A DNA stretch of 64,000 bases from a virus. The notes below the pieces were generated by a model that had not been told where the DNA came from, ran no database searches, and saw only the letters and a list, made by a program, of their open reading frames with translations. The stretch is taken from IMG/VR virus record IMGVR_UViG_3300020463_002440, positions 1-64,000 of that record. One strand, 5' to 3'. The translations under genes were made by a program, and so were the position numbers. Numbering within the stretch: position 1 is the first letter of the stretch; each line of letters begins with the position of its first letter. This document shows, in pieces, positions 1-53,779 of this stretch.

Positions 1-288
1 GGATTGCCACTACAAAGAATATCTACAAATGTAATTAGGCATGTGTACAGAAGAACTAGAGGTAAATTAACTATCATTGGTGTTGGCGGTGTATTTACAG
101 CCAAAGATGCTTATGAAAAAATTACATCAGGTGCTAGTTTACTACACATGATCACAACTATGATATTCGACGGTCCACAAAATATTAATGAAATTAATAG
201 AGGGCTTGTTAAACTTATTAAAAAAGACGGATTTGAATCTATTGAACAGGCAGTAGGTTGTCGTAATCCATTACCGGAGCTAAATTAA
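1..288 (+). CDS. pyrD: Dihydroorotate dehydrogenase, C-terminal part (5' end outside window)
   Basis: IIGVGGV...DAYEKI..GASL motif of the DHODH FMN-binding C-terminus; frame is open from base 1. Confidence 0.85.
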   Translation, partial: GLPLQRISTNVIRHVYRRTRGKLTIIGVGGVFTAKDAYEKITSGASLLHMITTMIFDGPQNINEINRGLVKLIKKDGFESIEQAVGCRNPLPELN

Positions 289-8749: not shown

Positions 8750-8790
8750 TATAAATATCCATTGACAAATCATGCACTCTGTGATATAAT
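8750..8790 (+). promoter_or_regulatory. Tandem late (TATAAATA) and sigma70-type promoter
   Basis: TATAAATA 8750-8757; TTGACA 8762-N17-TATAAT 8785. Confidence 0.7.
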
Positions 8791-8812
8791 AACCATATAA
8801 CTGGAATAATAT

Positions 8813-9307
8813 ATGTCCCAAGACTTAAGTCACGTAAAAACAGACGTTGCGTTAATCAAGAAAGATATAAAACAAATAGAAAAATTTTTTACAAAGTTTG
8901 ACTATATTGTGGAAATTTCTGCAGAGCGCGACAAGAACATGGCCGTTCAGGTTGAGGTTCTTAAAGGTGTCTCTGAAAAAATTGAAGCGATGGACTTCAA
9001 AATTGAAGAGCATAAGCAAGATGCAGCCAAGGCTCTTGCTGTGGTTCATGATAGATTAGAAATGTATCGAAAGTCTTCAAGAGAAGACCATGAAAGATTG
9101 TCAAGCACAAGTGCTGAATCTCGAAAAGAGCGCAATGCTGAGATTATGGAAGCACTTGGCAAACTCAACGGACAACTTGATAAAAGAATATCTGATATGG
9201 AAAACCAAGTAACAACACTTGATAGATGGAAGTGGTATACACTTGGAATGGTTGCCATAATTGTTTTCATATCAACAAGATTAGACCTTTCTGCAATTTT
9301 TAGTTGA
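8813..9307 (+). CDS. Coiled-coil protein with C-terminal TM helix
   Basis: Heptad pattern; WKWYTLGMVAIIVFI. Confidence 0.6.
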   Translation: MSQDLSHVKTDVALIKKDIKQIEKFFTKFDYIVEISAERDKNMAVQVEVLKGVSEKIEAMDFKIEEHKQDAAKALAVVHDRLEMYRKSSREDHERLSSTSAESRKERNAEIMEALGKLNGQLDKRISDMENQVTTLDRWKWYTLGMVAIIVFISTRLDLSAIFS

Positions 9308-9332
9308 CATTCTAAACATTTTTTGTTATAAT
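9304..9332 (+). promoter_or_regulatory. Sigma70-type promoter upstream of primase
   Basis: TTGACA-N17-TATAAT. Confidence 0.75.
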
Positions 9333-9368
9333 AGCAGTTAATAACAAAACATTTGGCTTTTTTATATA

Positions 9369-10388
9369 ATGATTGATTTTACCGACCTACAATACGCCCA
9401 GCATTTAGCAGGCCGACTTGATAGATTCAGAATAAGACACACTAACCCTTATAAGATCAATTTTCGTTGTCCGCTATGCGGCGATTCAAAAAAGAGCCGA
9501 ACAAAAGCTCGTGGTTGGCTCCTTGAGAAAGAATCAAGCTTTCACTACTATTGTCATAACTGTGGTGCAAGTCATTCCTTTTCCAACTTTCTCAAGGTAG
9601 TCGACCCTTTATCATATAATGATTACATCGCAGAAAAATTTATCAACAATGCAAATTCATCTCCTAAAACAGAAACATCAACTCTAGATGACACTAAATT
9701 TGAGCAACCAAAATTCTCTCATGGGGAACCACTAAAAAAGTTAAAAAAAATCAGCCAGCTTGAACATTCTCACCCAGTAAAGAAATATATAGATAAAAGG
9801 TCTATTCCTTCTAAGCATCATTATCGACTTTACTTTGCTCCAAAGTTTAAAGAATGGATTAACGGAATTATTCCAAATAAGTTAGAATATGGTAAAGAAG
9901 AGCCTCGCTTAGTTATACCTTTTTTAGACAAAGACCGAAAGTGTTTCGGTGTTTCAGCCAGAGGATTCGATCCTGACGGTCTTAGGTACATTACCATTAT
10001 GTTTGATGAGGTACCTAAAATATTTGGACTCGACAAAGTAAACTTTCAAGAAAAGTATTACGTGGTCGAAGGTGCGTTGGATAGCATGTTTTTATCAAAC
10101 GCTGTTGCCATGGCAGGAGCCGATGGTAATACAAATGCACTTGACCATGTAGGGAATGCTGTCTTTGTCTTTGATGCTGAACCTCGTAATAAAGAGATTC
10201 ACAAAAGAATGGAAAGAATAATTGATAAAGGTCATAGTATTGTAATATGGCCGTCCGATACTCCTGGTAAGGATATCAATGAAATGGTACTCTCAGGCAA
10301 GATATCTTGTGTCGAGAGTTTAATGAGAACAGTAACGTATAAAGGCTTAGAGGCAAAATTGAAATTTCAACAATGGAGAAGGACATAG
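9369..10388 (+). CDS. DNA primase (T4 gp61-like)
   Basis: RCPLCGDS..CHNC zinc finger; VVEG.LD, FD.EPRN, KDINE TOPRIM motifs. Confidence 0.95.
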   Translation: MIDFTDLQYAQHLAGRLDRFRIRHTNPYKINFRCPLCGDSKKSRTKARGWLLEKESSFHYYCHNCGASHSFSNFLKVVDPLSYNDYIAEKFINNANSSPKTETSTLDDTKFEQPKFSHGEPLKKLKKISQLEHSHPVKKYIDKRSIPSKHHYRLYFAPKFKEWINGIIPNKLEYGKEEPRLVIPFLDKDRKCFGVSARGFDPDGLRYITIMFDEVPKIFGLDKVNFQEKYYVVEGALDSMFLSNAVAMAGADGNTNALDHVGNAVFVFDAEPRNKEIHKRMERIIDKGHSIVIWPSDTPGKDINEMVLSGKISCVESLMRTVTYKGLEAKLKFQQWRRT

Positions 10389-10391
10389 ATA

Positions 10392-11075
10392 ATGAAGGTT
10401 AAATTGATTAGTCATAGCCAATCACCTGAGTACAACGAATCTGCTCAGGACTTAATTGCTTATTGTGCACGAGTAAGTAATCCATCAAATCAAAATAATA
10501 AAGAGACATCTGAAAAACTTTTGAAGTACCTTGCTAAACATAAGCATTGGTCTCCATTTGAAATGGTTAGTGCATGTCTTGAAATTGAAACAACGAGGGA
10601 TATCGCTCGCCAGCTACTAAGGCATCGTAGTCTAAGCTTCCAGGAATTTAGTCAACGTTATGCCGATCCTGTTTCTGATTTGGAACTTATTCCAAGAGAA
10701 GCAAGATTACAAGATCCGAAGAATCGTCAAAATAGTATTTCTATTAATGAAGACGATGAACAACAAAGAAGAATAAATGAAGAATGGCGTATGAAACAAA
10801 TGACTTTCATTAGAGAAGCCAAGAAACTATATAACTGGGCTATTGATAAAGGTATAGCAAAAGAACAAGCAAGAGCCGTATTGCCTGAAGGTAATACTGT
10901 GTCCAGATTATATGCAAATGGTACTTTGAGAAGTTGGATTCATTATATTGAATTACGATCCGCAAATGGAACACAGAAGGAACACATGGACCTTGCGATT
11001 GCGATTGCTAAAGTTATAGCTGAAATTTTTCCTTTATCTGAACAATATATTACAAATGAACAAGGAGAACATTAA
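10392..11075 (+). CDS. thyX: Flavin-dependent thymidylate synthase
   Basis: HWSPFE; RHRSLSFQEFSQRY ThyX motif. Confidence 0.95.
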   Translation: MKVKLISHSQSPEYNESAQDLIAYCARVSNPSNQNNKETSEKLLKYLAKHKHWSPFEMVSACLEIETTRDIARQLLRHRSLSFQEFSQRYADPVSDLELIPREARLQDPKNRQNSISINEDDEQQRRINEEWRMKQMTFIREAKKLYNWAIDKGIAKEQARAVLPEGNTVSRLYANGTLRSWIHYIELRSANGTQKEHMDLAIAIAKVIAEIFPLSEQYITNEQGEH

Positions 11076-12866
11076 ATGCAGCACTTAGGAATTGACATTG
11101 ATAAGAAGAGAGATAAAATATTAGGAGAGCAGTCATTTAAACTGTTAAAAGATTATTATTGTAGAGACGATGAGAAAACACCACAGATGGCATTTGCCCG
11201 AGCAGCGGTAGCTTTTTGTGGTAACAACATTGGACTAGCTCAAAGAATTTATGACTATGTATCAAAAGGTTGGTTTATGTATTCATCTCCTGTATTATCA
11301 AATGCACCGCTTAAAGGAGAAGAAGTAAAAGCATTACCTATTAGTTGTTTCCTAACTTATGTACCTGATACACTTGATGGATTAATTGACCATACAGCAG
11401 AGTTAAGATGGTTATCCGTTAAAGGTGGCGGAGTAGGTGGTCATTGGTCAGACATAAGAGCGGTATCAAAGAAAGCACCTGGGCCAATGCCATTCTTACA
11501 TACTGTTGACGCTGATATGGTCGCTTATCGTCAAGGCAGGACACGTAAAGGATCTTATGCTGCATATATGGATATTGACCATCCTGATATTGTAGAGTTC
11601 ATTAATATGAGGATTCCTACAGGAGATGTAAATCGAAAGAATTTAAATCTTCATCATGCTGTTAATTTATCTGATAAGTTTATGGAAGCAGTAAGAGATG
11701 GTAAGCAATGGGGTTTATTAGATCCAAATGATAAGTCGGTTCGTGAAATGACTGATGCTCGTAAACTATGGGAGTTAATATTAGAAACAAGGTATCGTAC
11801 TGGTGAACCTTATGTTAACTTTATTGATACGGCAAACAGAGCATTACCTCAAGCTCAGAAAGATTTAGGTCTTAATATAAAAGGATCTAACCTATGTAAT
11901 GAAATTCATTTAGTGACCAATGAAGAAAGAACAGCAGTATGTTGTTTATCTTCCGTCAATTTAGAAATGTATGACGACTGGAAAGATACAACCATGGTTA
12001 AAGACCTTATTGTATTCCTAGACAATGTATTACAATTCTTCATTGATAATGCAGGAGATGAGATCTCAAAGGCTCGTTATTCTGCACAACAAGAAAGATC
12101 ATTAGGTTTAGGAGCGATGGGATTACATTCCTATTTCCAAAAACATTTAATTGCATTTAATAGTCAAGAGGCTATTGATAAAAACGAGGAAATATTTTCT
12201 CACATAAAAGCAAAGTCAGTTGAAGCAACTTTACAGATGGGTAATCGACGTGGTGAAGCACCAGATATGATTGGCACAGGCCGTCGTAATGCTCATATGT
12301 TAGCAATTGCTCCAAATGCAAACAGTTCTATGATTGTAAATACCTCACCATCAATTGAACCATGGAAGGCAAATGCATTTACTTCAAGAACAAGGGTGGG
12401 TAGCCACCTAAATAAAAATCCATATCTGAAAAAGGTATTAGGAGATCTTGACAAAGACACTGAAGAAGTGTGGTCAATTATAATTACAAATGGAGGATCA
12501 GTTCAGGGTCTAGACTTCTTAGATGATCATTTAAAGGAAGTATTTAAGACGGCAATAGAATTGGATCAGCATGTATTAATCCGCTTAGCAGGAGACCGAC
12601 AAAAGTATTTATGTCAAGGACAATCATTAAACATCTTTTTCCCAGCAGGAGCTGATAAGAGGTACTTACATACAGTACACTATCAAGCATGGGCAGAAGG
12701 ATGTAAAGGATTATATTATTTAAGAACAGAATCTTCTAACAAGGCAGAAAACGTATCTCAAAAAGTAGAACGCGAAAAGTTAGATGATATTATTAACCCA
12801 GACTCAATAAAGTTCAGCAACGGCTCGGAGGAACAACAAGATGAGTGCATCGCCTGCGAAGGATAA
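11076..12866 (+). CDS. nrdA: Class Ia ribonucleotide reductase alpha subunit (no ATP cone)
   Basis: PISCF, SNLCNEI, IAPNA, GLYYLR, C-terminal CIACEG. Confidence 0.95.
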   Translation: MQHLGIDIDKKRDKILGEQSFKLLKDYYCRDDEKTPQMAFARAAVAFCGNNIGLAQRIYDYVSKGWFMYSSPVLSNAPLKGEEVKALPISCFLTYVPDTLDGLIDHTAELRWLSVKGGGVGGHWSDIRAVSKKAPGPMPFLHTVDADMVAYRQGRTRKGSYAAYMDIDHPDIVEFINMRIPTGDVNRKNLNLHHAVNLSDKFMEAVRDGKQWGLLDPNDKSVREMTDARKLWELILETRYRTGEPYVNFIDTANRALPQAQKDLGLNIKGSNLCNEIHLVTNEERTAVCCLSSVNLEMYDDWKDTTMVKDLIVFLDNVLQFFIDNAGDEISKARYSAQQERSLGLGAMGLHSYFQKHLIAFNSQEAIDKNEEIFSHIKAKSVEATLQMGNRRGEAPDMIGTGRRNAHMLAIAPNANSSMIVNTSPSIEPWKANAFTSRTRVGSHLNKNPYLKKVLGDLDKDTEEVWSIIITNGGSVQGLDFLDDHLKEVFKTAIELDQHVLIRLAGDRQKYLCQGQSLNIFFPAGADKRYLHTVHYQAWAEGCKGLYYLRTESSNKAENVSQKVEREKLDDIINPDSIKFSNGSEEQQDECIACEG

Positions 12867-12888
12867 CGATAAAAAATCAGGAAGAAAA

Positions 12889-14097
12889 ATGGAAGTACTA
12901 ATATACACAAAATCAAACTGCCCCTTTTGTGAAAAGGCAAAAGCTTGGTTTACACAACATGGATTAACATACACACAGGTTGTATTAGACGATGAAGAAC
13001 AAAGATTAGCATTTTACCAAAGAATATCAAATGGTAAAGAAGTAAGATCAGTACCACAGATTTATATAGATGATAAACATATTGGAACGTATAATGATTT
13101 AATGGCAATTTCCAATACATTAATTAAAAAACAAGGCGGTCTTTTAGAGTTCTCAGAAACTTATAAACCGTTTCACTATCCTTGGGCTGTTGAAATTACA
13201 ACAAGGCATGAAAAGGCTCATTGGATTGAAGATGAACTTGACCTATCAGAAGATGTTTCTGATTGGAAAGGTGGTAAGATTACGCCGACTGAAAAAGAAT
13301 ATATTACAAACATCTTAAGATTATTTACGCAATCAGATGTTGCTGTAGGTCAAAACTATTACGATCAATTTATTCCGAAGTTTAAGAATAATGAAATACG
13401 TAATATGTTAGGATCTTTTGCTGCTCGAGAAGGTATTCACCAAAGAGCATATGCATTATTAAATGAAACATTAGGTTTGTCAGACGCTGAATACCACGCA
13501 TTCTTAGAGTATTCTGAAATGGCAGATAAGATTGATTATATGCGTAAAGCAGATCCATCTACATTGCGTGGTCTTGGTCTTTGTTTAGCAAAATCTGTAT
13601 TTAACGAAGGAGTTGCTTTATTTGCTTCTTTCGTTATGCTACTTAACTTTCAGCGTTTCGGTAAAATGAAAGGTATGGGTAAAGTAGTAGAGTGGTCAAT
13701 TCGTGATGAGTCAATTCACGTTGAAGGTATCTCTAAATTATTTAAAGCATTTGTTAAAGAGCACAGCCGTGTTGTTGATGATAGTTTTAAAAAGGAAATC
13801 TACGAAATGTCAAAAGACATTGTAGATCTGGAAGATAAGTTTATCGACCTAGCTTATTCGTTAGGCGCAATCGAAGGCTTGAAAGAATCCGAAGTAAAAG
13901 AATATATAAGGTATATAACTGACAGAAGATTATTACAGCTGGGTATGAAGCCAAACTTCAAGGTTAAGGAAAATCCATTACCTTGGTTAGAATGGGTGCT
14001 GAATGGTGCAGACCATACAAATTTCTTCGAAAATCGTGTAACTGAATATGAAGTTGCTGGTTTAGAAGGAAGTTGGGACGATGCCTACGCTGCTTAA
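12889..14097 (+). CDS. nrdB: Glutaredoxin-NrdB fusion (RNR beta subunit)
   Basis: CPFC..VPQI Grx domain followed by EGIH..Y, RDESIH, NFFE.R..EY. Confidence 0.92.
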
Positions 14098-14108
14098 GGC
14101 GAAGGACA

Positions 14109-15311
14109 ATGATAAACAAAAAATACTTTCAGGATGTAGTCGACACTCTTAAAGAAGAGGGTAAGTATCGCATCTTTAATGATATAGTAAGAGAGAGGGG
14201 AAACTTTCCTAAGGCTACATGGTACTCAAAATATTCACCAAAGACAATTACTCATTGGTGTTCAAATGATTACCTTGGGCAAGGGCAAAACAAATACGTC
14301 ATAGACGCAATGGAAACTGCACTCAAAAAGACAGGAAGTGGTAGTGGAGGTACACGTAATATAGGCGGTACCTCTCATTATCATGTTACTCTCGAAGCAG
14401 TCATAGCTGATTTACATAAAAAAGAAAAAGGTTTACTTTTTACTTCAGCATATGTTGCTAATGAATGGGCTCTGATTGCTCTTAGTCGTATTGTTCCAAA
14501 TATCTGTTTTATATCCGATAATAAAAATCATGCCTCAATGATTATGGGTATTAAACATTCTCGAGCAGAAAAGATAATTTGGGAACACAATAATATGGAA
14601 CAGTTAGAGAATGCTTGTCAACAGGCAGTTGAGAATAACTTAATTCCATGTATTGTATTTGAATCCGTATATAGTATGGATGGAGATGTTGCACCAATTA
14701 AAAAAGTTTGCGATATAGCAGATAAGTATAACGCAATGACTTATATTGATGAAGTTCATGCAGTAGGACTTTACGGTGACACAGGAGCTGGGTACTGCGA
14801 AAAATTAGGACTCTCAGATAGAGTAGATATTATAAATGGAACATTGGGCAAAGCGTTTGGTTGTCACGGTGGTTATATTACTGGTGATAGTATCGTACTT
14901 GATGCTATACGCAGCGTGGCCTCAGGGTTTATATTTACCACTTCCCTTTCACCTGTAATGTGTGCAGGAGCAATTGCTTCAATACGTTACTTAAAGGAAC
15001 ACAACGAATTACGCGAATCACACCAGGAAAGAGCAAATACATTAAGACAAATGCTTAATGATAATAATATTGAGCTTCATCCAAGCAGTTGCACTCATAT
15101 ATTACCAGTTATGGTTAGAGATGCAAAGAAATGTAAACTTATGTCGGACAAATTATTAAATGACTATGGAATATATGTTCAGCCTATTAATTACCCAACA
15201 GTCGATGTGGGTTCGGAGCGGCTTAGAATTACACCAACACCATTTCACGATGATATTATGATGGATCAATTAATCGTAGGACTTAAGGAGACGTTTAGGG
15301 ATATACAATGA
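14109..15311 (+). CDS. hemA: 5-aminolevulinate synthase (Shemin/C4 pathway)
   Basis: [62 protein letters not shown]. Confidence 0.93.
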
Positions 15312-15913
15312 CAATGAATAAAGTGTACCCGGCGTTCAGTACACCGATATATAAAGATTACATAAACTTAAATAAAGATATATTAAATCCAGTTTTAAGA
15401 AACATTGATTTTAAAAGAATTAATACTAATGATAGATTTCATTCAGCAGATTATAAAATATTAGATAATGATTTAAATTTTTTAAAGCAACTCATAGTTG
15501 AAAAGATAAAAGAATATAGCCAAAACTATTTGGGTTTAGTAGAAAGGCATAAAATAGTAATAACAGATAGTTGGGTTATGAAACATACTTCAGGAGATAG
15601 TTCTGAAATACATTGGCATCCTAATAGTATTATATCAGGTTGCTTGTATTTACAAACAGATCCGAAGAGTGGTAATATTTGTTTCTTTAGAGAAAAAAGT
15701 TTATTTAACGATGTACTTGATTTTGAAACTACAGAGAGTGAATTTAATAAAAAAGAAGTACAAGTTGCACCAACTGATGGAATGATTATATTATTTCCGT
15801 CTACATTAAAACATGGAGTAAATCCATCAAGAAGTGATATACCGCGTTTTTGTCTCGCGTTTAACACTTGGATAGAAGGGGAATTAGATCCACCTTTTAG
15901 GAGTAAAACATGA
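15308..15913 (+). CDS. 2OG-Fe(II) oxygenase-like protein
   Basis: HWHPNS..SG..YL; ILFPS.LKH.V; R...AFN. Confidence 0.75.
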
Positions 15914-16734
15914 AATGGTTAACACTATTCACGTCTTTAACACTTGCATCTACAGCAGCCTACTTTAGTATTATCGGTTTAATGACAATCTTTAGTGGAG
16001 CAGCCATATCAATTGCTGTAATGACAACTGTATTAGAATTTGGTAAACTTGTATCAGCAGCTTGGCTACACTATGAGTGGGACCGCATAAATAATTTAGT
16101 AAGAGGTTATTTTACAGCAGCAGTGCTTGTATTAATGTTAATTACCTCAATGGGTATCTTTGGATTTTTATCAAAGGCTCATATTGATTCAGCATTAGTA
16201 TCGGACAGTTATAGTTTGGAAGCAAGCATTATTGATACAAGAATAAATGCAGAACAGTCAAAACTCAAAGCTGCACAAGATCGTATTGAAGGTTTAGATT
16301 ACGTACTTGAAACATCAAGACCACAAGATCGTAATTATGTAAATGTCAAACAAACAGAAGAAAGAGAAAGTTTAGCAATAACTATTGACAAAGCAGTAGA
16401 AAGTATTGTAAAATATAACGAACAAAAATTACCAATACAGAGGCAACAGTTAGAACAAGAATCAGAATTAGGACCAGTTAAATATATCGCTGATATGATA
16501 TATGGTTCTGAAGCTAAAGAATATTATGACAATGCAGTAAGATGGGTTATCTTAACAATCATATTTGTGTTTGACCCACTGGCAATTATGCTATTAATTG
16601 TAAGTACCGCAGCGTTTAAAAGAGAGCGTGAAACTCCGGCAACGCCGTTAGTTGACGAAGGTCAAATTATGAATATGGAAATCGAAGAAAAGCGCAACGG
16701 ATTAACAACAACAATTAATAGGAGAAAAATATGA
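15910..16734 (+). CDS. Conserved phage membrane protein
   Basis: Three N-terminal TM helices, coiled coil, FVFDPLA TM helix. Confidence 0.7.
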   Translation: MKWLTLFTSLTLASTAAYFSIIGLMTIFSGAAISIAVMTTVLEFGKLVSAAWLHYEWDRINNLVRGYFTAAVLVLMLITSMGIFGFLSKAHIDSALVSDSYSLEASIIDTRINAEQSKLKAAQDRIEGLDYVLETSRPQDRNYVNVKQTEERESLAITIDKAVESIVKYNEQKLPIQRQQLEQESELGPVKYIADMIYGSEAKEYYDNAVRWVILTIIFVFDPLAIMLLIVSTAAFKRERETPATPLVDEGQIMNMEIEEKRNGLTTTINRRKI

Positions 16735-17147
16735 GTATTAAAAAATTAGGTTGGATGGCTTTGGGATTTGTATCACTAGGTGTTGCATATATTGGAGTAG
16801 TACTTCCTGGTATACCTTTTAGTATTCCTGCCGTATTTGCTGCTTATTGTTTCGCAAAGAGTTCTGATAGAATGCATACATGGTTATATAATCATAAACT
16901 ATTTGGACCTTTTTTAACAAACTGGGAAACAAAGAAAGTATTTCCACAAAAAGCAAAATATGCTATGATAGGATTTATGGCCTTTGCATTAATCTTAATG
17001 TGGTTTACAACAGGTAACATTAAAGCAATGTTGTATTCAGGTACATTTATGGCTCTAGGTGCATTATGGGGTTGGCAATATCCTAATTCACCAGAAGAAT
17101 ATGACAGGCGTATTAAGGCCGGAGAAAAAATAGGATTATTTAAGTAA
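16731..17147 (+). CDS. ybaN: YbaN/DUF454 family inner-membrane protein
   Basis: IGVVLPG.P....AAYCFAKSS.R.H.WL..H.LFGP...NW. Confidence 0.8.
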   Translation: MSIKKLGWMALGFVSLGVAYIGVVLPGIPFSIPAVFAAYCFAKSSDRMHTWLYNHKLFGPFLTNWETKKVFPQKAKYAMIGFMAFALILMWFTTGNIKAMLYSGTFMALGALWGWQYPNSPEEYDRRIKAGEKIGLFK

Positions 17148-17422
17148 TGTCGAAACGAGACGACAATGAAATGCCATTTGATGATGATGGTCGTATAGAT
17201 TTAGAAAGGTGGAAAAGAATTAATGCCTTTGTAAATATGCTACACGACATGCATTATATGAATCAGCAGGAGAAGGCAAAACAGTTTCGTACTATACGAA
17301 ACAAATATCTTCAAGAGTTGGATATGGTTGACACAGTCGTCGATATGATGGAAGAATATCCTGAAGCCGAATTGATAATAAATAAGATCCTAAGAAGGTT
17401 AGATAATGACAAAAAATACTGA
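17147..17422 (+). CDS. Hypothetical protein
   Basis: 91 aa, translationally coupled. Confidence 0.55.
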   Translation: MSKRDDNEMPFDDDGRIDLERWKRINAFVNMLHDMHYMNQQEKAKQFRTIRNKYLQELDMVDTVVDMMEEYPEAELIINKILRRLDNDKKY

Positions 17423-17600
17423 TTGCACTTACGAGGAAGCAACTCCTGAGGCAATAGAAAAATGGCATAAAGAAGACTATTGGATGCGTATGGATTATAA
17501 TCCATTAGTTATGTTTGTAGTCATTCCAACAATCATTCAATTACTTGCGTTCTTACTTATGGGTGGAGTGATGCTTATGAATAGTTATTTCTTCGGATGA
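17406..17600 (+). CDS. Small membrane protein
   Basis: 64 aa, C-terminal TM helix. Confidence 0.55.
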   Translation: MTKNTDCTYEEATPEAIEKWHKEDYWMRMDYNPLVMFVVIPTIIQLLAFLLMGGVMLMNSYFFG

Positions 17601-17761
17601 TAAAAGAAGTACTTAAAGCATTAGTAGGAGTAGGTAGACCACCTGAAACTCCATTTGAGCCGAGTCCTAAGAATATACTTATATTCGCTATTTTATTATT
17701 GTTATGTTTTCTTGGAACAGTAACAGGTGCATTATTTTTAACAAGTTTAGTATTGAGGTAA
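17597..17761 (+). CDS. Small membrane protein (not in ORF track)
   Basis: MIKEVLKALVGVGR...54 aa, ATGA overlap, one TM helix. Confidence 0.55.
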   Translation: MIKEVLKALVGVGRPPETPFEPSPKNILIFAILLLLCFLGTVTGALFLTSLVLR

Positions 17762-17764
17762 TAT

Positions 17765-17941
17765 ATGACTATGATTTATGAAAGTCCTGATAAAGGCAAA
17801 ACAGTTTACGAAAGGCCGTTTGGCGCGCCTTTGAGTGAACGCAAATTGGTTAAACAAGAACCAAGTGCAGTAGAAGATGCAGCTAATGCTATGGCACAGG
17901 CAGCATATAACGATAAATTACGAAAAGAAAAGTTACGCTAA
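17765..17941 (+). CDS. Small hypothetical protein (not in ORF track)
   Basis: MTMIYESPDKGKTVYERPFG, 58 aa, GAGG RBS. Confidence 0.6.
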   Translation: MTMIYESPDKGKTVYERPFGAPLSERKLVKQEPSAVEDAANAMAQAAYNDKLRKEKLR

Positions 17942-17952
17942 TAGAGGTAAAT

Positions 17953-18282
17953 ATGAAAAGTGATTATGTAATAATTGATACAGTATCAATGTTTAAACAA
18001 AGATACATAGTACCTAGAGAAGAGGTACAAAGGTGGAATGAAGAAATTAAGTTAACTGATAAGCTTGCAAAGCAGTGGGCTCAGGAATCAGTTGAAGCAG
18101 AAGAAATAAAAGAATTCAGTCAACGATGGTTGGGTGAAACTGTTTCTAATGTAGATTTTGCTGATACTGAAAAAGTACTTAAATTATTCAAAGAAGATAA
18201 TGAACAATTATCTGAAGAATGGACTCAGGCAAAACAGCTTGACTACATTAACGACTGGAAAGATAAGACACCAAAAGAGTGA
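17953..18282 (+). CDS. Hypothetical protein
   Basis: 109 aa, GAGG RBS. Confidence 0.6.
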   Translation: MKSDYVIIDTVSMFKQRYIVPREEVQRWNEEIKLTDKLAKQWAQESVEAEEIKEFSQRWLGETVSNVDFADTEKVLKLFKEDNEQLSEEWTQAKQLDYINDWKDKTPKE

Positions 18283-18518
18283 TATACATTTATGGAACTA
18301 GGTCTTGCACATTCTGTGACAAGGCTAAAGTGATGGCAACCGATTACTATGGAGGATATAAATTCCTTGACATCGGCATCACAATGTATTATAATAAACT
18401 AATAGAGCAAGATATAAGTACAAACGTACTACCTCAGATCTTTGAGGACAAGCGGTACATTGGTACATACTATGACTTTATGAAAGAAAAACAGACTAAA
18501 CTGAGAGGAACATGTTAA
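18279..18518 (+). CDS. Glutaredoxin-like protein
   Basis: CTFC, LPQIF, YIGTY. Confidence 0.75.
   Translation: MIYIYGTRSCTFCDKAKVMATDYYGGYKFLDIGITMYYNKLIEQDISTNVLPQIFEDKRYIGTYYDFMKEKQTKLRGTC
18367..18395 (+). promoter_or_regulatory. Sigma70-type promoter inside the glutaredoxin CDS, upstream of glyA
   Basis: TTGACA-N17-TATAAT. Confidence 0.55.
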
Positions 18519-19672
18519 ACGAAGAGATCAATAGGATCTATCAAAAAGAATTGTCAAGACAAAAATTGACAGTAGAACTTATCGCAAGCGAAAACTTTGC
18601 TTCAAAGGCTGTAATGAAATTGTGCGGTTCAGAATTTACAAACAAATATGCAGAAGGTTATCCTGGAGCACGTTATTATAATGGTTGTGAATTCATGGAC
18701 GAAATTGAAACATTGGCAATTAATCAACTTAAAGAAATATACGGATGTGAATTTGCGAATGTTCAACCACATAGTGGAGCAAATGCAAATCTTGCTGTAT
18801 ATAAAGCGTTCTTAAATCCAGGAGATACAATTCTTGGAATGGATTTAGCAAGCGGCGGACATTTAACTCATGGAGCTCCTGTTACAATTTCAGGCAAATG
18901 GTTTAATGCCCATACTTACGGTGTTGACGAAAACGGTTTAATTGATTACGATGAAGTTGCTCGATTAGCACAAGAACACAAACCCGATATGATAGTTGCT
19001 GGTGCAAGTGCATATCCAAGACAAATCAATTGGGTAAAGTTTAGAGCAATAGCTGATTCTGTTGGTGCGTTGTTATTAGTGGACATGGCTCATTATTCTG
19101 GATTGATCGCAGGAGGTGTATATGACAATCCAGTAGAATATGCAGATGTTGTTACTTCAACAACGCACAAAACATTACGAGGACCTCGTGGTGGAATTAT
19201 ATTATGGAACAATCCTGAGTATACAAGAAAGCTAAATGGAGCAATCTTCCCAGGTACTCAAGGCGGACCATTAATGAATATTATCGCAGCTAAGGCCCAA
19301 GCATTTGTCGAAGCAAATACTCGAGACTTTCAATGGTATTCAAAAAAGGTAGTTGAGAACGCAAAAGAATTAGCAAAAGTAATACATAATTCAAAAACAT
19401 TGGAAGTACTAACAGGTGGAACCGATTCACATATTATTCTTGTAAGTTTAGTCAATTCTAAATTAAGTGGTAGAGAAGCTGCTGATATTTTAGAAAAGCA
19501 TCGTATTACTGTAAATAAAAATGGCATACCAAACGATCCTAGAAACTTTAAAGAAACAAGTGGCATACGTATTGGTACAGCAGCAGAAACAACTCGCGGT
19601 ATGACAACAAAAGAATTTGGAAAGTTAGGGCAAAGAATTGTTAAGATACTTGAAGACGAATCACAATGGTAG
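18512..19672 (+). CDS. glyA: Serine hydroxymethyltransferase
   Basis: LIASEN, NKYAEGYPG.RYY, GGHLTHG, STTHKTLRGPRGG, FPGTQGGP. Confidence 0.96.
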   Translation: MLNEEINRIYQKELSRQKLTVELIASENFASKAVMKLCGSEFTNKYAEGYPGARYYNGCEFMDEIETLAINQLKEIYGCEFANVQPHSGANANLAVYKAFLNPGDTILGMDLASGGHLTHGAPVTISGKWFNAHTYGVDENGLIDYDEVARLAQEHKPDMIVAGASAYPRQINWVKFRAIADSVGALLLVDMAHYSGLIAGGVYDNPVEYADVVTSTTHKTLRGPRGGIILWNNPEYTRKLNGAIFPGTQGGPLMNIIAAKAQAFVEANTRDFQWYSKKVVENAKELAKVIHNSKTLEVLTGGTDSHIILVSLVNSKLSGREAADILEKHRITVNKNGIPNDPRNFKETSGIRIGTAAETTRGMTTKEFGKLGQRIVKILEDESQW

Positions 19673-19842
19673 ATATGATAGGCAACTCAAAAAGATGGCA
19701 AGACTCATCTAGTGGTTGGGTTGATACTATGACAAAATCAAAAGAGAACAAAGAAGAGTATCAAGAATATATAAAAACAAGAAACAATCCAATCCCATAT
19801 AGAGATTGGTTAAGAGAGAAAGCAAATGGCATTAAAAAGTAA
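19666..19842 (+). CDS. Small hypothetical protein (not in ORF track)
   Basis: 58 aa, overlaps both neighbours. Confidence 0.5.
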   Translation: MVDMIGNSKRWQDSSSGWVDTMTKSKENKEEYQEYIKTRNNPIPYRDWLREKANGIKK

Positions 19843-19969
19843 CGCATATACATCATCGCATAACGGCATAAGAAAAGGTACGAGTATTGGAGCAAATCCA
19901 AAGAGCAGAGCTACGATGAACAAATCAAAGAAACGTTCATTTAAAAAGTATCGCGGCCAAGGTAAGTGA
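19826..19969 (+). CDS. Small basic peptide ending KKYRGQGK (not in ORF track)
   Basis: 47 aa MALKSNAY...MNKSKKRSFKKYRGQGK. Confidence 0.65.
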   Translation: MALKSNAYTSSHNGIRKGTSIGANPKSRATMNKSKKRSFKKYRGQGK

Positions 19970-20151
19970 TTTATAACAGATTAGCTTCAGCAGCTTATGG
20001 AGAAGGTAGAAAATATTTTAAATGGTGGATAAATGTTTGGTGTAAACGACCTCGTTAAAAAATTATTAATTTTAGGAATCGTTTTACTTCCATGGGAAGT
20101 TTTGCTGGTATATATTATAGTTAAGGCCTTTGTATAATAATAAATAAAGAT

Positions 20152-20598
20152 ATGGCATATAGCAATAAAGTAGTAAATAGATTTGAAGATGTATTAAATA
20201 ACCCTGAAAAACATGGAGTTGGACGATTTGATCCAAACGATCCACATGTAGCAACAGGACTAACAGGTGCACCTGCTTGCGGCGACGTTATGAAATTGGA
20301 TTTAAAACTAAATCCTGATAACGACGAAATCATTGATGTTAAATTTAAAACATACGGATGTGGTTCAGCAATTGCTTCATCTACTTTGTTTGTTGAAATG
20401 CTTAAGGGAAAAACAATTGAAGAAGCTAAACTTATAAAAGATAAGGATATAGCTGATTCTTTGGAACTACCTCCAATTAAAATACATTGTTCAGTTTTAG
20501 CTGAAGACAGTATTAAAAAAGCAATTGAAGATTGGGAAGAAAAGAAAGCAGGGCGTAATACTTCCTGGATTGAAAAGATGACAATGGGAAAAAAATAA
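20152..20598 (+). CDS. iscU: Fe-S cluster scaffold protein
   Basis: GAPACGDVMKL, FKTYGCGSAIAS, LPPIKIHC. Confidence 0.93.
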   Translation: MAYSNKVVNRFEDVLNNPEKHGVGRFDPNDPHVATGLTGAPACGDVMKLDLKLNPDNDEIIDVKFKTYGCGSAIASSTLFVEMLKGKTIEEAKLIKDKDIADSLELPPIKIHCSVLAEDSIKKAIEDWEEKKAGRNTSWIEKMTMGKK

Positions 20599-20600
20599 AA

Positions 20601-40646: not shown

Positions 40647-40672
40647 AAGGGAGTTGAAAGGCTCCCTTTTTT
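40647..40672 (+). terminator. Intrinsic terminator at a convergent junction
   Basis: AAGGGAGT-TGAAAG-GCTCCCTT + TTTT. Confidence 0.75.
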
Positions 40673-41000
40673 ATTGTGTATGTTTTTTAGCAATTGCTAT
40701 TGCTTCTTCTACTGTATACGGACTACTATGTGCCAATGGTGCTTTCGTTTCGGTTATGTTTGGAAAAACATCTGATAGTCTTGCATTGATTTCAAAGAAT
40801 GGTATTTGCTCAGGTGGTAATTCATCTTCACTCCATATTGCTTCAACAGGACATTCAGGAACACAAAGACCACAATCAATACATTCATCAGGATGTATTA
40901 CTAAAAAATCAGGTCCTTCATAAAAGCAGTCAACAGGACATACTTCCACACATTTAGTATCTTTACATCCGACACAAGGACTACCTACTACAAAAGCCAT
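40671..41000 (-). CDS. fdxA: 7Fe/8Fe ferredoxin (FdxA-like)
   Basis: [38 protein letters not shown]. Confidence 0.9.
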
Positions 41001-41006
41001 AACGAA

Positions 41007-41576
41007 TTATCTCTTAGGACATCTAATTTTTGCTTTTTTGGTTATCTTATAATTATTATATGCTACCAAGCCAGTCAAAGCAGCTGACATAAATTTCCAT
41101 TCATTCCACATTAGTTCACCATATTCTTCATCAGCATAAAACACGTTACTCACAGCCCAGATAACACTACCTTTTAAAGCAATCATCTCGCCAACTTCTG
41201 GGACTGGTGGTAATAAAGGATTTGCTTCTTCAATACATGAATACTTAACTCCTTCATAAGTCGTATATACATCTGCTATATGTGCTGTCCAAAATAAAAC
41301 ATTAACTAATAATTTATCCTTATTACTATGTTGCATAACAAATTCATTAAAACTTAATTCACCAAGTATTAACGTAGGTTCTTTATATTGAGGTAAGGTT
41401 TGAACTCTTCTAACTGTTTCGTCACTATAAGGAGCGTGATGTCCTAATCTGATAAGTTCTTTTGTTGCTTCAGAGAGTTCTGATAATAATGGGTCTTTTG
41501 GAACATATGCTTGTGCAGGAATTATAAAACATAATCCTAAAATAAGACTACTTAGTAGTCGCGATAAAAACACCAT
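41007..41576 (-). CDS. Hypothetical membrane/secreted protein
   Basis: Signal peptide; D..TT...C..EANP. Confidence 0.6.
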   Translation of the reverse strand: MVFLSRLLSSLILGLCFIIPAQAYVPKDPLLSELSEATKELIRLGHHAPYSDETVRRVQTLPQYKEPTLILGELSFNEFVMQHSNKDKLLVNVLFWTAHIADVYTTYEGVKYSCIEEANPLLPPVPEVGEMIALKGSVIWAVSNVFYADEEYGELMWNEWKFMSAALTGLVAYNNYKITKKAKIRCPKR

Positions 41577-43593
41577 TCCAATCCTTGGGAAGATCTTGCG
41601 TTTTCATGTATTCACAACGCTCAATCCACATTTTGTAATAACCGTCCATTTGTCCTTCAAAGCAATCCATGAGGTCATTACATATTTTAATCGCCTTATC
41701 AAAGTTTTGCTTTTGATAATTTGAATGCATTGCTTTGTGCATATCTACTGGTTTAATATATTTATCTTTATTTAGATCGAGAACAGTATATATTGTGATA
41801 CCTATTGTTTTTCCTTTCACAGCAAGATCATCAACCTTTAGAAAAAAGAATTCATTCGGATTACAACGATCTACAGTTTCTTCTCCGACTAATAATAGAC
41901 AACCATATTCTTTACACTTGGATTCTATTCTTGCGGCTGTTGATACGGCATCTCCAAGTATATCGTAGCTGTGACGAGATGTACTTCCCATTTCGCCAAC
42001 ATATCCAAGACCGCTATTAATACCTGCTCCCATACCAATCGGAGGTCGACCTTCTTTTGTAATTTTATTATTAAAGGATTCAACAGCTCTTAACATATTA
42101 ATACCAGTTTGTACTGCCGTCTTTGCATGATCTTTATCTTCCATAGGAGCATTATGTATATGCATACTTGCGTCTCCAATGTATTTGATAATCATTCCAT
42201 TTGCATCTAGAACAGGTTGTGTAATTGCATCCATATAACCATTCATTAATGTGGTCAGTCCTTTAACATCATCTCCGAAGCTTTCGCCCAGTGGAGTAAA
42301 TCCTCGAAGATCACTGAATACAATACTTACATCTTTTTTCATTCCGTCCTTGACAAGTGAGGGATTTTGTTGTAAAATAGTAACAACTTCTGGAGAACAA
42401 TACCCAGCGAATTGTTTCATGATTTCGCGCTTTTCTAAAAATGTTAAATAGTATTTGTTAAAGGAACTTTGGGCAAACACAACTAAGGAACTCAATGAAA
42501 TCAAAGATGCGTCAACGAAGATCAATGAACCGCTCCAAAGCCAGTAACTCACTCCGTATCCGGAAGAAACAAGACCAAGACTTATTAACACCCCAGGAGT
42601 TATGGGCAAGATATAGACCGCTCCAAGGATACCTAGACTCAATAAGACCAGAAGACCGAGCTCGAGTATTGGCTTCCAGTCGGGAATCTGTATTTCAACT
42701 CCTGAAAGAACGGTCTGAATTAGTTGGGCTTGAACTTCGTGGGGATACATTGCACCCGTTGGGGTTGAAACTGGATTAGAGACACCTTCAGCTGTTACTC
42801 CAAAGATAAGAACCTTTCCACTAGGTAAAGGATCAGTAATACTTATTTGTTCAAATTGATTCCAAAACGCAATTGGTAATTCAGCAAAACTATTTGTTGT
42901 GATAGGATCTTGACGACCCATACGAATCCATTCAACGCCGTTGGCGCCTACCTTCATTTGGTAACTGGGTTCTCCTGAATACACACGTAAGGTGTCAAGG
43001 GCGAGACTAGGGTATACGTTCCCGGCTGCTTCGACAACAAGTGGTGCTCTACGCACGACTCCGGTTGGTTCATCAGGTATAGCAACGGTAGCACCAACCC
43101 CGAAAGCGAAATTAGACAAATTGTCGATAGGATAAAGTAATCCAGGAAATTTGTAGAGCCATTTTTCATTTTGTTCTCCAAAGGTAGCGACACCTACAAA
43201 GGTACCTAAACCACCTGTTAATTGTTGTGATGGTGCTGAGGCCAACACCACTGCTTTTTGTTGCATTTCAAATGCAAGTAAATTGTCTTCTCCAAATCTA
43301 TCTTCTTCGGAGTATATTAAGTTAAGTACATAAAGGCTATCATTAGGGCCGTCACGTAAATAATCAGCAATGGAACCGCGAGGCCAAGGATACTGACCTT
43401 TGGCAGAGATTGCGGTTTCGTCGATGTTGACGAGGACCACGTCTTCAATAATTTCTTTTGTTTGATTTTGCTGTAACGCGTCATAATAAGCGTATTCTAT
43501 ACTTTGTATGAAACTAGGATTAACAATACTTAAAGTAGCAAAGCCTGCGATTGTAATAAGTACTGTCCACCACTGAGTTAGTGTTTTAAACAT
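41548..43593 (-). CDS. CHASE2-domain class III adenylate/guanylate cyclase
   Basis: VNIDE..GQYPWPR (CHASE2), three TM helices, FSDLRGFT, KYIGDA, YDILGDAV..AARIE. Confidence 0.92.
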   Translation of the reverse strand: MFKTLTQWWTVLITIAGFATLSIVNPSFIQSIEYAYYDALQQNQTKEIIEDVVLVNIDETAISAKGQYPWPRGSIADYLRDGPNDSLYVLNLIYSEEDRFGEDNLLAFEMQQKAVVLASAPSQQLTGGLGTFVGVATFGEQNEKWLYKFPGLLYPIDNLSNFAFGVGATVAIPDEPTGVVRRAPLVVEAAGNVYPSLALDTLRVYSGEPSYQMKVGANGVEWIRMGRQDPITTNSFAELPIAFWNQFEQISITDPLPSGKVLIFGVTAEGVSNPVSTPTGAMYPHEVQAQLIQTVLSGVEIQIPDWKPILELGLLVLLSLGILGAVYILPITPGVLISLGLVSSGYGVSYWLWSGSLIFVDASLISLSSLVVFAQSSFNKYYLTFLEKREIMKQFAGYCSPEVVTILQQNPSLVKDGMKKDVSIVFSDLRGFTPLGESFGDDVKGLTTLMNGYMDAITQPVLDANGMIIKYIGDASMHIHNAPMEDKDHAKTAVQTGINMLRAVESFNNKITKEGRPPIGMGAGINSGLGYVGEMGSTSRHSYDILGDAVSTAARIESKCKEYGCLLLVGEETVDRCNPNEFFFLKVDDLAVKGKTIGITIYTVLDLNKDKYIKPVDMHKAMHSNYQKQNFDKAIKICNDLMDCFEGQMDGYYKMWIERCEYMKTQDLPKDWNGVFIATTK

Positions 43594-44527
43594 GTTTACG
43601 ATATACTTTTACCGTATTAATTAATTGTCTTACGTGTTCAACTGGAGTTGTCTTATCAATTCCATGAGCCAAGTTAACAATATACGGCCTGTCTTTCATT
43701 TTATTGAGTACAGGTGTAATATCTTCTCCTTTAATTAATCGGCTTACTGAAATACCTCCTTGAAGTACTTCGCCATTAATTTGATCCACAGGTAAATCAT
43801 CGCTCATATTTGTTGCGTCAGGATTTACTTGTTCTATATAATCATTTATTTTTGTACCAACAAGTCTTGGAAAGGCAATAATACAAACATCAGGATAATG
43901 AGCTCTTATAACATCAACAATTTGCTGTGTTGGTTGAATTACATATTCATAAAAGTTTTCTTCTGATATGTCACAAGCATGACTATCAAATATTTGTATT
44001 GTATCACACCCTGCTTCAATTTGCATTGATAGGTGGTCAATAATATAAGGTACTAATTTTTGTACTACATCCAATCTTTGTTCTTCACACATATATTTAC
44101 ATATTGTGTATGGTGCTGCAGCAAATCCAATTAAAGATTTACTATCATCAAGCTCTTCTCTAACTTTTCGTATTGCTTCGTAAACTGGTTCGCACTTATC
44201 TTGGAATTCTTCTCGTGTTGTTTCCCAAAATGATTCGTTGTATGGACCTAGCTTTGGACCAGGAACATAATCAAGTTCTTGTCCTAAAGCGTAATTCACA
44301 ATTAATATATCTGAAAATATAATTGCACAATCCATATCAAACTCAAGAATAGGTTGCATCGTAATCTCAGCAGCCTTCCAAGGAGTAAGAGCCATATCTA
44401 AAAAGCCATCGGATTCTTTTTTCATTGCCATATATTCTGGCATATATCTTCCGGCTTGTCTCATTAACCAAACAGGATATAAATTAACTTCTTTATCCTG
44501 AATCGTTCTCTGTAATAATGTTTTCAT
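43586..44527 (-). CDS. hemE: Uroporphyrinogen decarboxylase
   Basis: PVWLMRQAGRYMPEY, AIIFSDIL, LIGFA.APYT, IQIFDS, NLAHGI. Confidence 0.9.
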   Translation of the reverse strand: MKTLLQRTIQDKEVNLYPVWLMRQAGRYMPEYMAMKKESDGFLDMALTPWKAAEITMQPILEFDMDCAIIFSDILIVNYALGQELDYVPGPKLGPYNESFWETTREEFQDKCEPVYEAIRKVREELDDSKSLIGFAAAPYTICKYMCEEQRLDVVQKLVPYIIDHLSMQIEAGCDTIQIFDSHACDISEENFYEYVIQPTQQIVDVIRAHYPDVCIIAFPRLVGTKINDYIEQVNPDATNMSDDLPVDQINGEVLQGGISVSRLIKGEDITPVLNKMKDRPYIVNLAHGIDKTTPVEHVRQLINTVKVYRKHV

Positions 44528-49457: not shown

Positions 49458-49465
49458 TATTTATA
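49458..49465 (-). promoter_or_regulatory. T4-type late promoter of the csg-fecR-cyclase operon
   Basis: TATAAATA on the minus strand, 37 nt upstream of the first ATG. Confidence 0.7.
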
Positions 49466-52936: not shown

Positions 52937-53779
52937 ATGATTCCATTAATTGGAACAAGAAAATCAAAACTTGCTCTTGCATATACTAACAAAGCAATAA
53001 AACGTTTAGATATTTCACTTACAACTGTCCTCATTGATTCAGAAGCAGATCTTAAACCTGATGTTACTATTGAAGAATTAGGTAATAAAGGAGTCTTTTC
53101 TAAAGAGGCTGAAACCTCTCTAATTAATAATCATATTGATATTGCATGTCATGCATACAAAGATCTTACAAGAGATAACGATCACCTTCTAGAAATATCC
53201 TGCGTACTACCAAGAGCTGACTTTAGAGATTGTTTAATTGGTAATAATATAAATCCAAGAACAATAGGTACAAGCTCTCCAAGAAGATTATTTCAATTAC
53301 AAGAATTATATCCAAATGCACAGATAGTTCCTATTCGTGGTAACATAGATACTCGAATACAAAAACAAGAGAACGGTGAATATGATGCAATTGTTTTAGC
53401 AAAAGCTGGTCTTGATTCTTTAAACCTTACTCACAAAGCAAGTAGAATATTTGGAACTGCAGATATGTTGCCTGCACCAGGACAAGGAGTTATTGCTTTA
53501 CAGACAAGAATACCAAATAATGATAGAGATCGCGATATTACAGGAATGTTATGGGCAAGAAATCATATTGACACTTGGTATACAGTAATGGCTGAAAAAG
53601 CAATGCTTAAAGAAATAAATGGAGACTGCCATACTCCAATTGGTGTATTATCATATGTTGAAAATAATACATTACACATGGTTGCGAAACACTTTGAAAC
53701 AGATAAGCTAAGTTTGAATAAAGGTCCTATTGAAGAATATAATGAAATAGGTTCGCAGCTCGGCAAATCTTTAATATGA
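52937..53779 (+). CDS. hemC: Hydroxymethylbilane synthase (porphobilinogen deaminase)
   Basis: IGTRKSKLA, KGVFSKE, H.YKD, IGTSSPRR, RGNIDTR, LPAPGQG, GDCHTPIG (cofactor Cys). Confidence 0.9.
   Translation: MIPLIGTRKSKLALAYTNKAIKRLDISLTTVLIDSEADLKPDVTIEELGNKGVFSKEAETSLINNHIDIACHAYKDLTRDNDHLLEISCVLPRADFRDCLIGNNINPRTIGTSSPRRLFQLQELYPNAQIVPIRGNIDTRIQKQENGEYDAIVLAKAGLDSLNLTHKASRIFGTADMLPAPGQGVIALQTRIPNNDRDRDITGMLWARNHIDTWYTVMAEKAMLKEINGDCHTPIGVLSYVENNTLHMVAKHFETDKLSLNKGPIEEYNEIGSQLGKSLI

Follow-up and report, generated by a model that had tools for sequence, protein, structure and literature searches.

Neighbouring but probably separately inherited auxiliary modules, a folate one-carbon cycle and tetrapyrrole synthesis, in the thyX–nrdAB–alaS–glyA region of an uncultured T4-type marine phage

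Wegner et al. (2024, Nat Commun) described viral genes for 5-aminolevulinate (ALA) synthase, valaS, on pelagimyophage-like contigs, either alone or together with hemO and pcyX, and reported that many of the encoded proteins lack the heme-sensing residues His342 and Cys400 (PMC11480375). Activity among the viral enzymes was assayed for the protein of freshwater phage CB_2, which complemented an E. coli ALA auxotroph (PMC11480375). Zaragoza-Solas et al. (2020, mSystems) found a porphobilinogen deaminase and a coproporphyrinogen oxidase in one "deep ecotype" member of the pelagimyophages, a group of marine T4-like phages whose replication and structural modules are separated by a curli-like csgF/csgG cluster (PMC7029224). 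Here, we analyze the first 64 kb (below, the window) of IMG/VR virus record IMGVR_UViG_3300020463_002440, labeled G000, a linear record of 156,383 bases that is approximately 73% complete by CheckV. Its subject is a block containing thyX, nrdA, a glutaredoxin–nrdB fusion, alaS (also called hemA), a DUF454/ybaN gene, and glyA, the gene for serine hydroxymethyltransferase (SHMT), together with hemE and hemC further along the window.

The block is best explained as the early nucleotide-metabolism and auxiliary-gene region of an uncultured pelagimyophage-like (T4-type) marine phage. We consider it likely that it comprises two auxiliary modules of known kinds, which are neighbours but have been inherited separately and do not form one glycine circuit. 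Such a circuit had been proposed in an earlier note, made from the sequence alone, according to which glycine released during phage dTMP synthesis feeds ALA synthase, pulls SHMT forward, and supplies heme for respiration. The gene order on which that proposal was built, with thyX, nrdA, grx-nrdB, and hemA consecutive, ybaN and glyA within 4.5 kb, and hemE and hemC elsewhere in the window, was confirmed with the same coordinates by Pfam and NCBIfam profile searches; active sites were assessed by alignment to solved structures.

The locus resembles the published valaS contigs in that a Shemin-type AlaS without the heme-feedback residues is encoded on a pelagimyophage-like contig. Relatives of G000 (records labeled G004, G012, etc., and loci labeled L177, L189, etc.) likewise have a "broken cassette", in which tens of kb separate hemO and pcyX from alaS, and the role proposed for such genes, that of an auxiliary gene keeping ALA flowing (PMC11480375), would apply here as well. 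The differences are that G000 also has hemC and hemE, and distant relatives hemF, genes not mentioned in that study (PMC11480375); that the constant partners of alaS here are nrdB upstream and DUF454 downstream; that the recovered 156 kb of G000 contain neither hemO nor pcyX; and that the assayed enzyme of CB_2 comes from outside the clade of G000 (PMC11480375). In the pelagimyophage study, alaS, hemE, and SHMT are not mentioned (PMC7029224), and in G000 hemE is located inside a curli/cyclase operon. The bilin genes of cyanophages (ho1, pebS, pcyA, cpeT) and the hemO–pcyX pair of Pelagibacter phage Mosig act at the heme-to-biliverdin-to-bilin end of the pathway, as does the hemO–pcyX pair in relatives of G000; those phages, however, start from host heme, whereas the lineage of G000 adds alaS, hemC, hemE, and in some members hemF.

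Deoxynucleotide synthesis in T4 involves the gp42 dCMP hydroxymethylase, the thymidylate synthase Td, the dihydrofolate reductase Frd, and NrdAB. The ribonucleotide reductase and gp42 homologue of G000 would similarly create a large demand for methylene-tetrahydrofolate (methylene-THF) for modified pyrimidines, but G000 has its own SHMT, where T4 relies on the host enzyme, and since ThyX replaces Td, the cycle would return THF rather than dihydrofolate. Full-length SHMTs are also present in large myoviruses, namely T4-like Aeromonas phages (approximately 52% identity; phrog_9968 match with E 1e-161), whereas the marine viral SHMTs constitute a clade of their own, are shorter (approximately 385 aa), and occupy two alternative loci in one phage group. 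With the terms tried, no paper on a phage hemE or on a link between glyA, thyX, and alaS was found. The earlier note had called three heme-pathway genes in one phage unusual; this holds only in part, valaS (PMC11480375) and hemC together with hemF (PMC7029224) having been published for this group before.

The gp23 capsid protein of G000 shares 65% identity with its counterparts in Sinorhizobium phage phiM12, Methylophilales phage Melnitz, and cyanomyoviruses, and genes for a scaffold protein, RNase H, ligase, and PhoH also are T4-like. A curli-like cluster (CsgG, CsgF, and a curlin repeat) lies, along with the T4-like core, in the arrangement characteristic of pelagimyophages (PMC7029224). The GC content of the window is even (0.33–0.39), and dozens of viral contigs in IMG/VR show the same gene orders; hence a host/phage chimera, already judged unlikely in the earlier note, can be dismissed. 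The nearest cultured relative, both by NrdB (80% identity) and by capsid, is Melnitz, a phage of OM43. The hosts of the lineage are probably not photosynthetic. An attempt to derive the host from glyA gave no candidate, as no cellular SHMT was more than 59% identical and no SAR11 genome was among the matches listed.

The enzymes of the folate cycle appear intact. The ThyX signature RHR(X)7S is present as RHRSLSFQEFS at residue 77, in a protein that belongs to the ThyX family by its profiles. ThyX converts methylene-THF and dUMP to dTMP and THF. The phage SHMT, a member of PF00464, matches SHMTs of known structure with E 1e-136, aligns to 3ecd over residues 10–381, and contains the motif of the lysine that binds pyridoxal 5'-phosphate (PLP) as TTHKTLRGPRGG (sought as T-T-H-K-T-L-R-G-P-R). 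Outside the window, at positions 153437–154111 of G000 on the minus strand, a gp42-type dCMP hydroxymethylase is encoded; it scores 244 bits against T4 gp42 (PDB 1b49; E 1e-71) versus 52 bits against ThyA (1e-13), falls below all ThyA cut-offs, and keeps the specificity aspartate (T4 D179), with NNDYAW aligned to RNDYAW of T4. The phage DNA probably carries hydroxymethylcytosine.

As ThyX and gp42 both turn methylene-THF into THF, each pyrimidine of the phage DNA would cost one SHMT turnover. For a genome of an estimated 214 kb with 35.6% GC we calculate approximately 214,000 methylene-folate units, and as many glycines, per genome copy. One tetrapyrrole consumes 8 glycines. By the same estimate, hundreds of tetrapyrroles per virion would take about 1% of the SHMT glycine, the output being approximately 100 times any plausible tetrapyrrole demand; much more glycine goes into purine synthesis, which uses one molecule for each purine, and into glycine cleavage than into AlaS. 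With these numbers AlaS cannot meaningfully pull SHMT, and this part of the earlier proposal is not supported. The presence of SHMT is explained by the methylene-folate demand for thymine and hydroxymethylcytosine, since the phage also encodes the gp42-type hydroxymethylase.

The alaS product is a full-length ALA synthase by fold. Its open reading frame (ORF) extends from a TTG at 14073, the likely start being the ATG at 14106. The best solved relatives are the Caulobacter and Rhodobacter enzymes (PDB 7x98, E 7e-130; 2bwn, E 1e-117), to which residues 5–397 and 11–391 align, respectively. The PLP-binding lysine (Rhodobacter K248) is kept as Lys249 in GTLGKAFG. The heme-sensing residues are not: Rhodobacter His342 is replaced by Lys, and the C-terminus (...LKETFRDIQ) has no Cys comparable to Cys400. 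AlaS of this type is abundant among viruses, with at least 120 protein clusters, all viral and at least 79% identical, some of them (81–86% identical) from ENA and Logan contigs of 194–200 kb; no SAR11 relative is among these 120 best clusters listed.

Two further enzymes of the pathway are encoded in the window. HemC keeps its catalytic residues in the alignment to 4mlq (the YKD aspartate, SSPRR, RGNIDTR, and the cofactor Cys in GDCHTP), and its gene is located between the curli cluster and gp23. HemE scores 240 bits against TIGR01464, in two stretches and below the cut-off of 303, because the protein is shortened to 313 aa, approximately 25–40 residues less than expected; nevertheless the active-site residues (human Arg37/Arg41, Asp86, Tyr164, and His339) are kept within RQAGRYMPEY, FSD, KYM, and NLAHG as aligned to 2eja. 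Both genes are syntenic in relatives, and copies of hemE with 76–90% identity were found in 9 viral contigs, all of which preserve the hemE–cyclase pair and the curli-cluster neighbourhood. In the structure alignments AlaS, SHMT, HemE, and HemC thus retain intact catalytic motifs, as the earlier note had stated for the latter two; pyrD, for which it had said the same, is a 71-residue stub at the contig end.

Between the primase-like gene (at 9369) and position 17600, neighbouring genes are spaced by −26 to +8 nt, so that they either touch or overlap, and from the primase-like gene through glyA they form one unbroken co-directional array, in which the seeming gaps hold small ORFs. The promoter before the primase-like gene is likely the early promoter of the array with thyX, nrdAB, and alaS. 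Perfect sigma-70-type promoters (TTGACA-17-TATAAT, 12/12) were observed at three places within 10 kb on the plus strand, 8762–8790, 9304–9332, and 18367–18395; overall, shuffled sequence has at least as many promoter-like sites. The operon with csgF, csgG, hemE, and the ferredoxin gene is preceded by the T4-type late motif TATAAATA, which also precedes, by 20–65 nt, five structural genes located between 55967 and 62802 and was not found on the plus strand between 8757 and 31212. With sigma-70 promoters before the array and before glyA and the late motif before the hemE operon, the motifs suggest early expression of alaS and glyA and late expression of hemE. An Rfam search of 8500–23000 at E up to 1 gave no match, hence no glycine, THF, or ZTP riboswitch.

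The genomic distribution of glyA and alaS separates them. It was established by whole-record searches and local tblastn and, for the nrdB locus, from the 80 IMG/VR loci nearest by NrdB. In nearly every one of these 80 loci where the contig reaches far enough, nrdB is followed by alaS. The glyA gene occupies two sites: 3–4 kb downstream of alaS in some relatives, as in G000, and in others approximately 20 kb upstream, between DUF6267 and a glycosyltransferase gene just after gp59–gp32–uvsX–gp41, the downstream slot being empty. Within the close clade, both alaS and glyA are nearly universal in records with enough sequence, and their proximity is not conserved. Outside it each is found without the other: alaS without glyA in G009, G011, G012, and G029 (with 25–44 kb of upstream cover), and glyA without alaS in 10 records, in several of which, from more distant phages, it is located beside nrdA/B or thyX. 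Moreover, thyX is not in its slot in six deduplicated alaS-bearing contig groups, although it could be elsewhere on these short contigs, and the complete genome of Melnitz has primase–nrdA–nrdB without thyX, alaS, or glyA at the locus.

Phylogeny points in the same direction. The 24 sampled viral SHMTs group together (100% SH-aLRT) to the exclusion of the 45 nearest bacterial sequences listed, which are at most 59% identical; glyA is thus an old viral gene that did not join alaS recently.

Across phage clades, alaS is most faithfully accompanied by the gene for the DUF454/YbaN membrane protein, which follows it 3' at AlaS identities of 66–88% (loci include window 14106–17147, L034–L038, and L169–L176). 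In the close clade, a gene for a 274-aa membrane and coiled-coil protein lies between the two. An origin of the alaS–DUF454 pair in Alphaproteobacteria was considered and rejected: DUF454 is present in 22 of 121 sampled genomes and is never near alaS in the 19 that have both. The pairing hence arose in phages. The 274-aa protein was also considered as a divergent HemD or other heme enzyme, and this was rejected given its membrane and coiled-coil character and the lack of a family match.

Further heme genes, of which the earlier note had suggested hemB, hemD, hemF, hemN, and hemH for a search, were not found in the 156 kb of G000 as far as hemB, hemD, hemF, and hemH are concerned (hemN, hemY, hemG, and hemJ were not searched for); nor was hemB found in the five relatives richest in heme genes. 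The relatives nevertheless add to the set. A pair of hemO and pcyX is located approximately 30 kb upstream of alaS in G004, G008, G024, and G032, the distant group G010–G013 has a contiguous hemF–hemC–hemE cluster approximately 6 kb from alaS, and G012 has alaS, hemF–hemC–hemE, hemO, and pcyX all on 57 kb. Supply of heme or bilin is favoured over respiration, since the heme genes co-occur with hemF, hemO, and a bilin reductase in relatives and hemE is late.

The hemF matches in G012 (19939–20712) and G010 (15152–15928) contain one or two in-frame stops (TGA or TAA), which could reflect a match extending beyond the ORF ends, a broken gene, or recoding. The heme oxygenase match in G032 (38763–39149) falls within a 460-aa open frame, double the length normal for this enzyme, and may be fused to a neighbouring gene.

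What the genes are, that their active sites are intact, how they are ordered, which promoter motifs accompany them, and where they occur in relatives was observed; from this we infer flux direction, expression times, and what each module is for, as follows. In the first module, NrdA and Grx-NrdB would make deoxynucleotides, ThyX would methylate dUMP, and the gp42-type enzyme would produce hydroxymethyl-dCMP; both pyrimidine reactions would return methylene-THF to THF, which the phage SHMT would reload from serine. In the second, an early AlaS free of feedback residues would raise tetrapyrrole flux, followed by HemC and a late HemE, and joined in relatives by HemF, heme oxygenase, and a PcyX-type bilin reductase. 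Glycine from SHMT would reach AlaS via the common pool, a by-product relation rather than a selected coupling.

Several points weigh against separating the block in this way. Firstly, since alaS and glyA both are nearly universal in the close clade, their independence is not demonstrable there, and a functional link at the genome level is possible. Secondly, AlaS enzymes have a high Km for glycine, and together with the glycine or serine need of SAR11 this means that glycine supply could matter to AlaS beyond stoichiometry. SAR11 requires external glycine or serine (PMC12753301), and it is possible that SHMT glycine helps a high-Km AlaS in such a host. Thirdly, the SAR11 host is itself a prediction, from kinship with pelagimyophages and a published AlaS identity of approximately 55% to Pelagibacteraceae, and the host is not certain, given that the nearest cultured relative infects OM43. 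Fourthly, hemC and hemE are accessory genes, since G028 (137 kb) and G032 (170 kb), both long records with alaS, have neither. Fifthly, hemO and a ferredoxin-dependent bilin reductase (FDBR, such as pcyX) were not found in the 156 kb of G000. Their absence is uninformative, because no more than 14 kb of G000 precede alaS and the record also lacks the essential gp59, gp32, uvsX, and gp41, which in G004 follow hemO–pcyX; both genes probably belong to the unrecovered quarter of the genome. Finally, for this phage, expression, flux, and enzyme activity all are predicted from sequence.

The alternative that survives best, though we regard it as unlikely, is that the tetrapyrrole genes mainly serve a bilin of the virion: AlaS, HemC, and HemE would raise heme, HemO and PcyX would convert it to bilin, and the pigment would be attached to a giant structural protein. 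Outside the window, at 101028–112295 of G000 on the minus strand, a structural-type protein of 3,755 aa is encoded, with eleven repeats of approximately 160 aa that share an invariant C-x-R-D and would offer eleven Cys-bearing attachment domains. For the AlphaFold model of one repeat (pLDDT 72), the top 50 Foldseek matches in PDB are all phycobiliproteins, smURFP, or the bilin domain of ApcE (TM scores 0.5–0.67). The E-values are only about 0.01, however, and Pfam PF00502 does not match the giant protein, the phycobiliprotein fold being visible by structure comparison only.

The distribution of the protein likewise cuts both ways. The same protein, with 12 domains, occurs in the alaS-bearing G028 and G032, the latter also with hemO and pcyX; G016 and G017 combine hemO and pcyX with a giant protein that contains the domain; and in Melnitz neither alaS, hemO, nor the C-x-R-D domain was found. 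Yet Mosig has hemO and no copy of the domain detectable by tblastn, and in 286 cyanophage records, "short tail fibre" or baseplate proteins contain homologous domains (24–28% identity) regardless of the tetrapyrrole genes present. By its promoter motif hemE would be co-expressed with late virion genes, and what hemO and pcyX do in phages whose hosts are not photosynthetic has been called enigmatic (PMC11480375). Against this stand the absence of hemO and pcyX from the recovered part of G000 and of any identified bilin lyase; pigmented virions of this kind are hypothetical.

Quite improbable, in our judgement, is the selected circuit of ThyX, SHMT, and AlaS, in which AlaS draws the glycine of folate recharging, thereby pulling SHMT and giving heme for respiration. 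What stands of it are three intact enzymes with the expected chemistry in one early co-directional array, the near universality of both alaS and glyA in close-clade records with enough sequence, and the missing feedback residues of AlaS, owing to which flux would follow substrate supply. In addition, host glyA was induced in one SAR11–pelagiphage infection, SAR11 being dependent on glycine or serine (PMC12753301). What speaks against the circuit is its distribution, the phylogeny of SHMT, and the stoichiometry reported above: glyA moves between two loci approximately 20 kb apart and alaS stays behind nrdB; other clades have one gene without the other; thyX is not in its slot in six alaS-bearing contig groups; the clade of viral SHMTs is old and tied to nrd and thyX genes; and the pull on SHMT is negligible by estimate next to purine synthesis and glycine cleavage. 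Furthermore, hemE is late, in a curli/cyclase operon, and the heme genes keep company with the heme-degrading hemO–pcyX rather than with respiratory genes.

To much the same degree we doubt that the whole chain is a single line toward a virion pigment, from SHMT glycine through the feedback-free AlaS, HemC/HemE (with HemF), and the HemO–PcyX bilin to the giant virion protein. Here SHMT could split serine in a glycine/serine-auxotrophic SAR11 host, giving both methylene-folate for DNA with thymine and hydroxymethylcytosine and glycine. If true, this would mean a pigmented particle in the phage of a non-photosynthetic host and a reason why such phages carry bilin genes.

It is highly improbable that the "hemA" product acts in vivo as another alpha-oxoamine synthase (Kbl, BioF, or a serine palmitoyltransferase-like enzyme), leaving no entry step to tetrapyrroles, since, although it belongs to this superfamily and matches the Kbl and BioF models at about 307 bits, these scores and that of the serine palmitoyltransferase model are below the cut-offs (460 for Kbl, 426 for BioF) and the AlaS model alone is passed (559 bits versus 339), AlaS structures are the best match by more than 180 bits, alaS co-occurs with hemC, hemE, hemF, and hemO, and an E. 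coli ALA auxotroph was rescued by a viral AlaS from this group (PMC11480375).

The reading of the block as two modules is a solid but incremental extension of published work. What it adds is hemE, a total of six tetrapyrrole genes among the members of the clade, the mobile glyA, the alaS–DUF454 pair, and the possible link to a phycobiliprotein-like virion protein. Some marine T4-like phages thus carry up to six tetrapyrrole genes (alaS, hemC, hemE, hemF, hemO, and pcyX). Phage-encoded ALA synthase is a recently recognized auxiliary gene, to which this lineage would add a self-contained ThyX–gp42–SHMT folate cycle, and treating the two modules apart keeps an unsupported glycine wiring out of the annotation. 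Why phages of non-photosynthetic bacteria need extra heme or bilin becomes a testable question, for which the alaS–DUF454 pairing and the phycobiliprotein-like virion protein are concrete leads; the bilin-virion idea would be a real surprise if true.

Table 1. Features of the G000 window discussed in the text, in order of position.
Feature	Position	Strand	Evidence or remark
pyrD C-terminal fragment (dihydroorotate dehydrogenase)	1..213	+	last 71 residues, cut by contig end; PF01180 profile positions 219-289, E 1e-20
Perfect sigma-70-type promoter TTGACA-17-TATAAT, before primase-like gene	9304..9332	+	12/12 consensus
thyX, flavin-dependent thymidylate synthase	10392..11075	+	TIGR02170 161 bits vs cut-off 88; PF02511
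nrdA, class Ia ribonucleotide reductase alpha subunit	11076..12866	+	NF006577 772 bits; Pfam
Glutaredoxin-NrdB fusion (grx-nrdB)	12841..14097	+	NF009398 681 bits; 80% identical to Melnitz protein
alaS ("hemA"), Shemin-pathway 5-aminolevulinate synthase	14106..15311	+	TIGR01821 559 bits vs cut-off 339
2-Oxoglutarate-Fe(II) oxygenase	15308..15913	+	PF13759 / phrog_81; at this site in few relatives only
Membrane protein, 274 aa, coiled-coil middle	15910..16734	+	no Pfam, NCBIfam or PHROG match; after alaS in nearly all close relatives
DUF454/YbaN small inner-membrane protein	16731..17147	+	PF04304 97 bits
Chain of small overlapping ORFs bridging ybaN to glyA	17147..18518	+	function unassigned; partly conserved in relatives
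Second perfect sigma-70-type promoter, ~120 nt before glyA	18367..18395	+	12/12 consensus
glyA, serine hydroxymethyltransferase (386 aa, trimmed termini, intact catalytic core)	18512..19672	+	NF000586 566 bits vs cut-off 335
IscU-type Fe-S cluster scaffold, after glyA	20152..20598	+	PF01592 135 bits; TIGR01999 162 bits, below cut-off 192
7Fe-type ferredoxin, end of hemE operon	40671..41000	-	Fer4 + DUF3470
CHASE2-adenylate/guanylate cyclase	41548..43593	-	start overlaps hemE end by 8 nt; always adjoins hemE in relatives
hemE, uroporphyrinogen decarboxylase, 313 aa, in curli-like late operon	43586..44527	-	PF01208 223 bits, profile positions 4-344 of 346
T4-type late promoter motif TATAAATA, ahead of csgF-csgG...hemE...ferredoxin operon	49458..49465	-	motif search
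hemC, hydroxymethylbilane synthase (porphobilinogen deaminase)	52937..53779	+	TIGR00212 232 bits vs cut-off 164; Pfam domains

The coordinates of all features are collected in Table 1. A gene-free stretch of approximately 680 nt is situated directly upstream of hemC (window 52241–52922). It is present in L183 and L187 and absent in L177–L181, where hemC abuts the preceding ORF, and hence is not an obligatory leader of hemC. A homologue of the iscU-type gene that follows glyA in the window is located directly beside hemE in one relative (L189, 755–1168). In the first kilobases of the window, a RimK-type ATP-grasp ligase is fused to a putative zinc or retropepsin-like protease domain in a single ORF of 482 aa (window 2647–4095), which is 81% conserved in relative G004.

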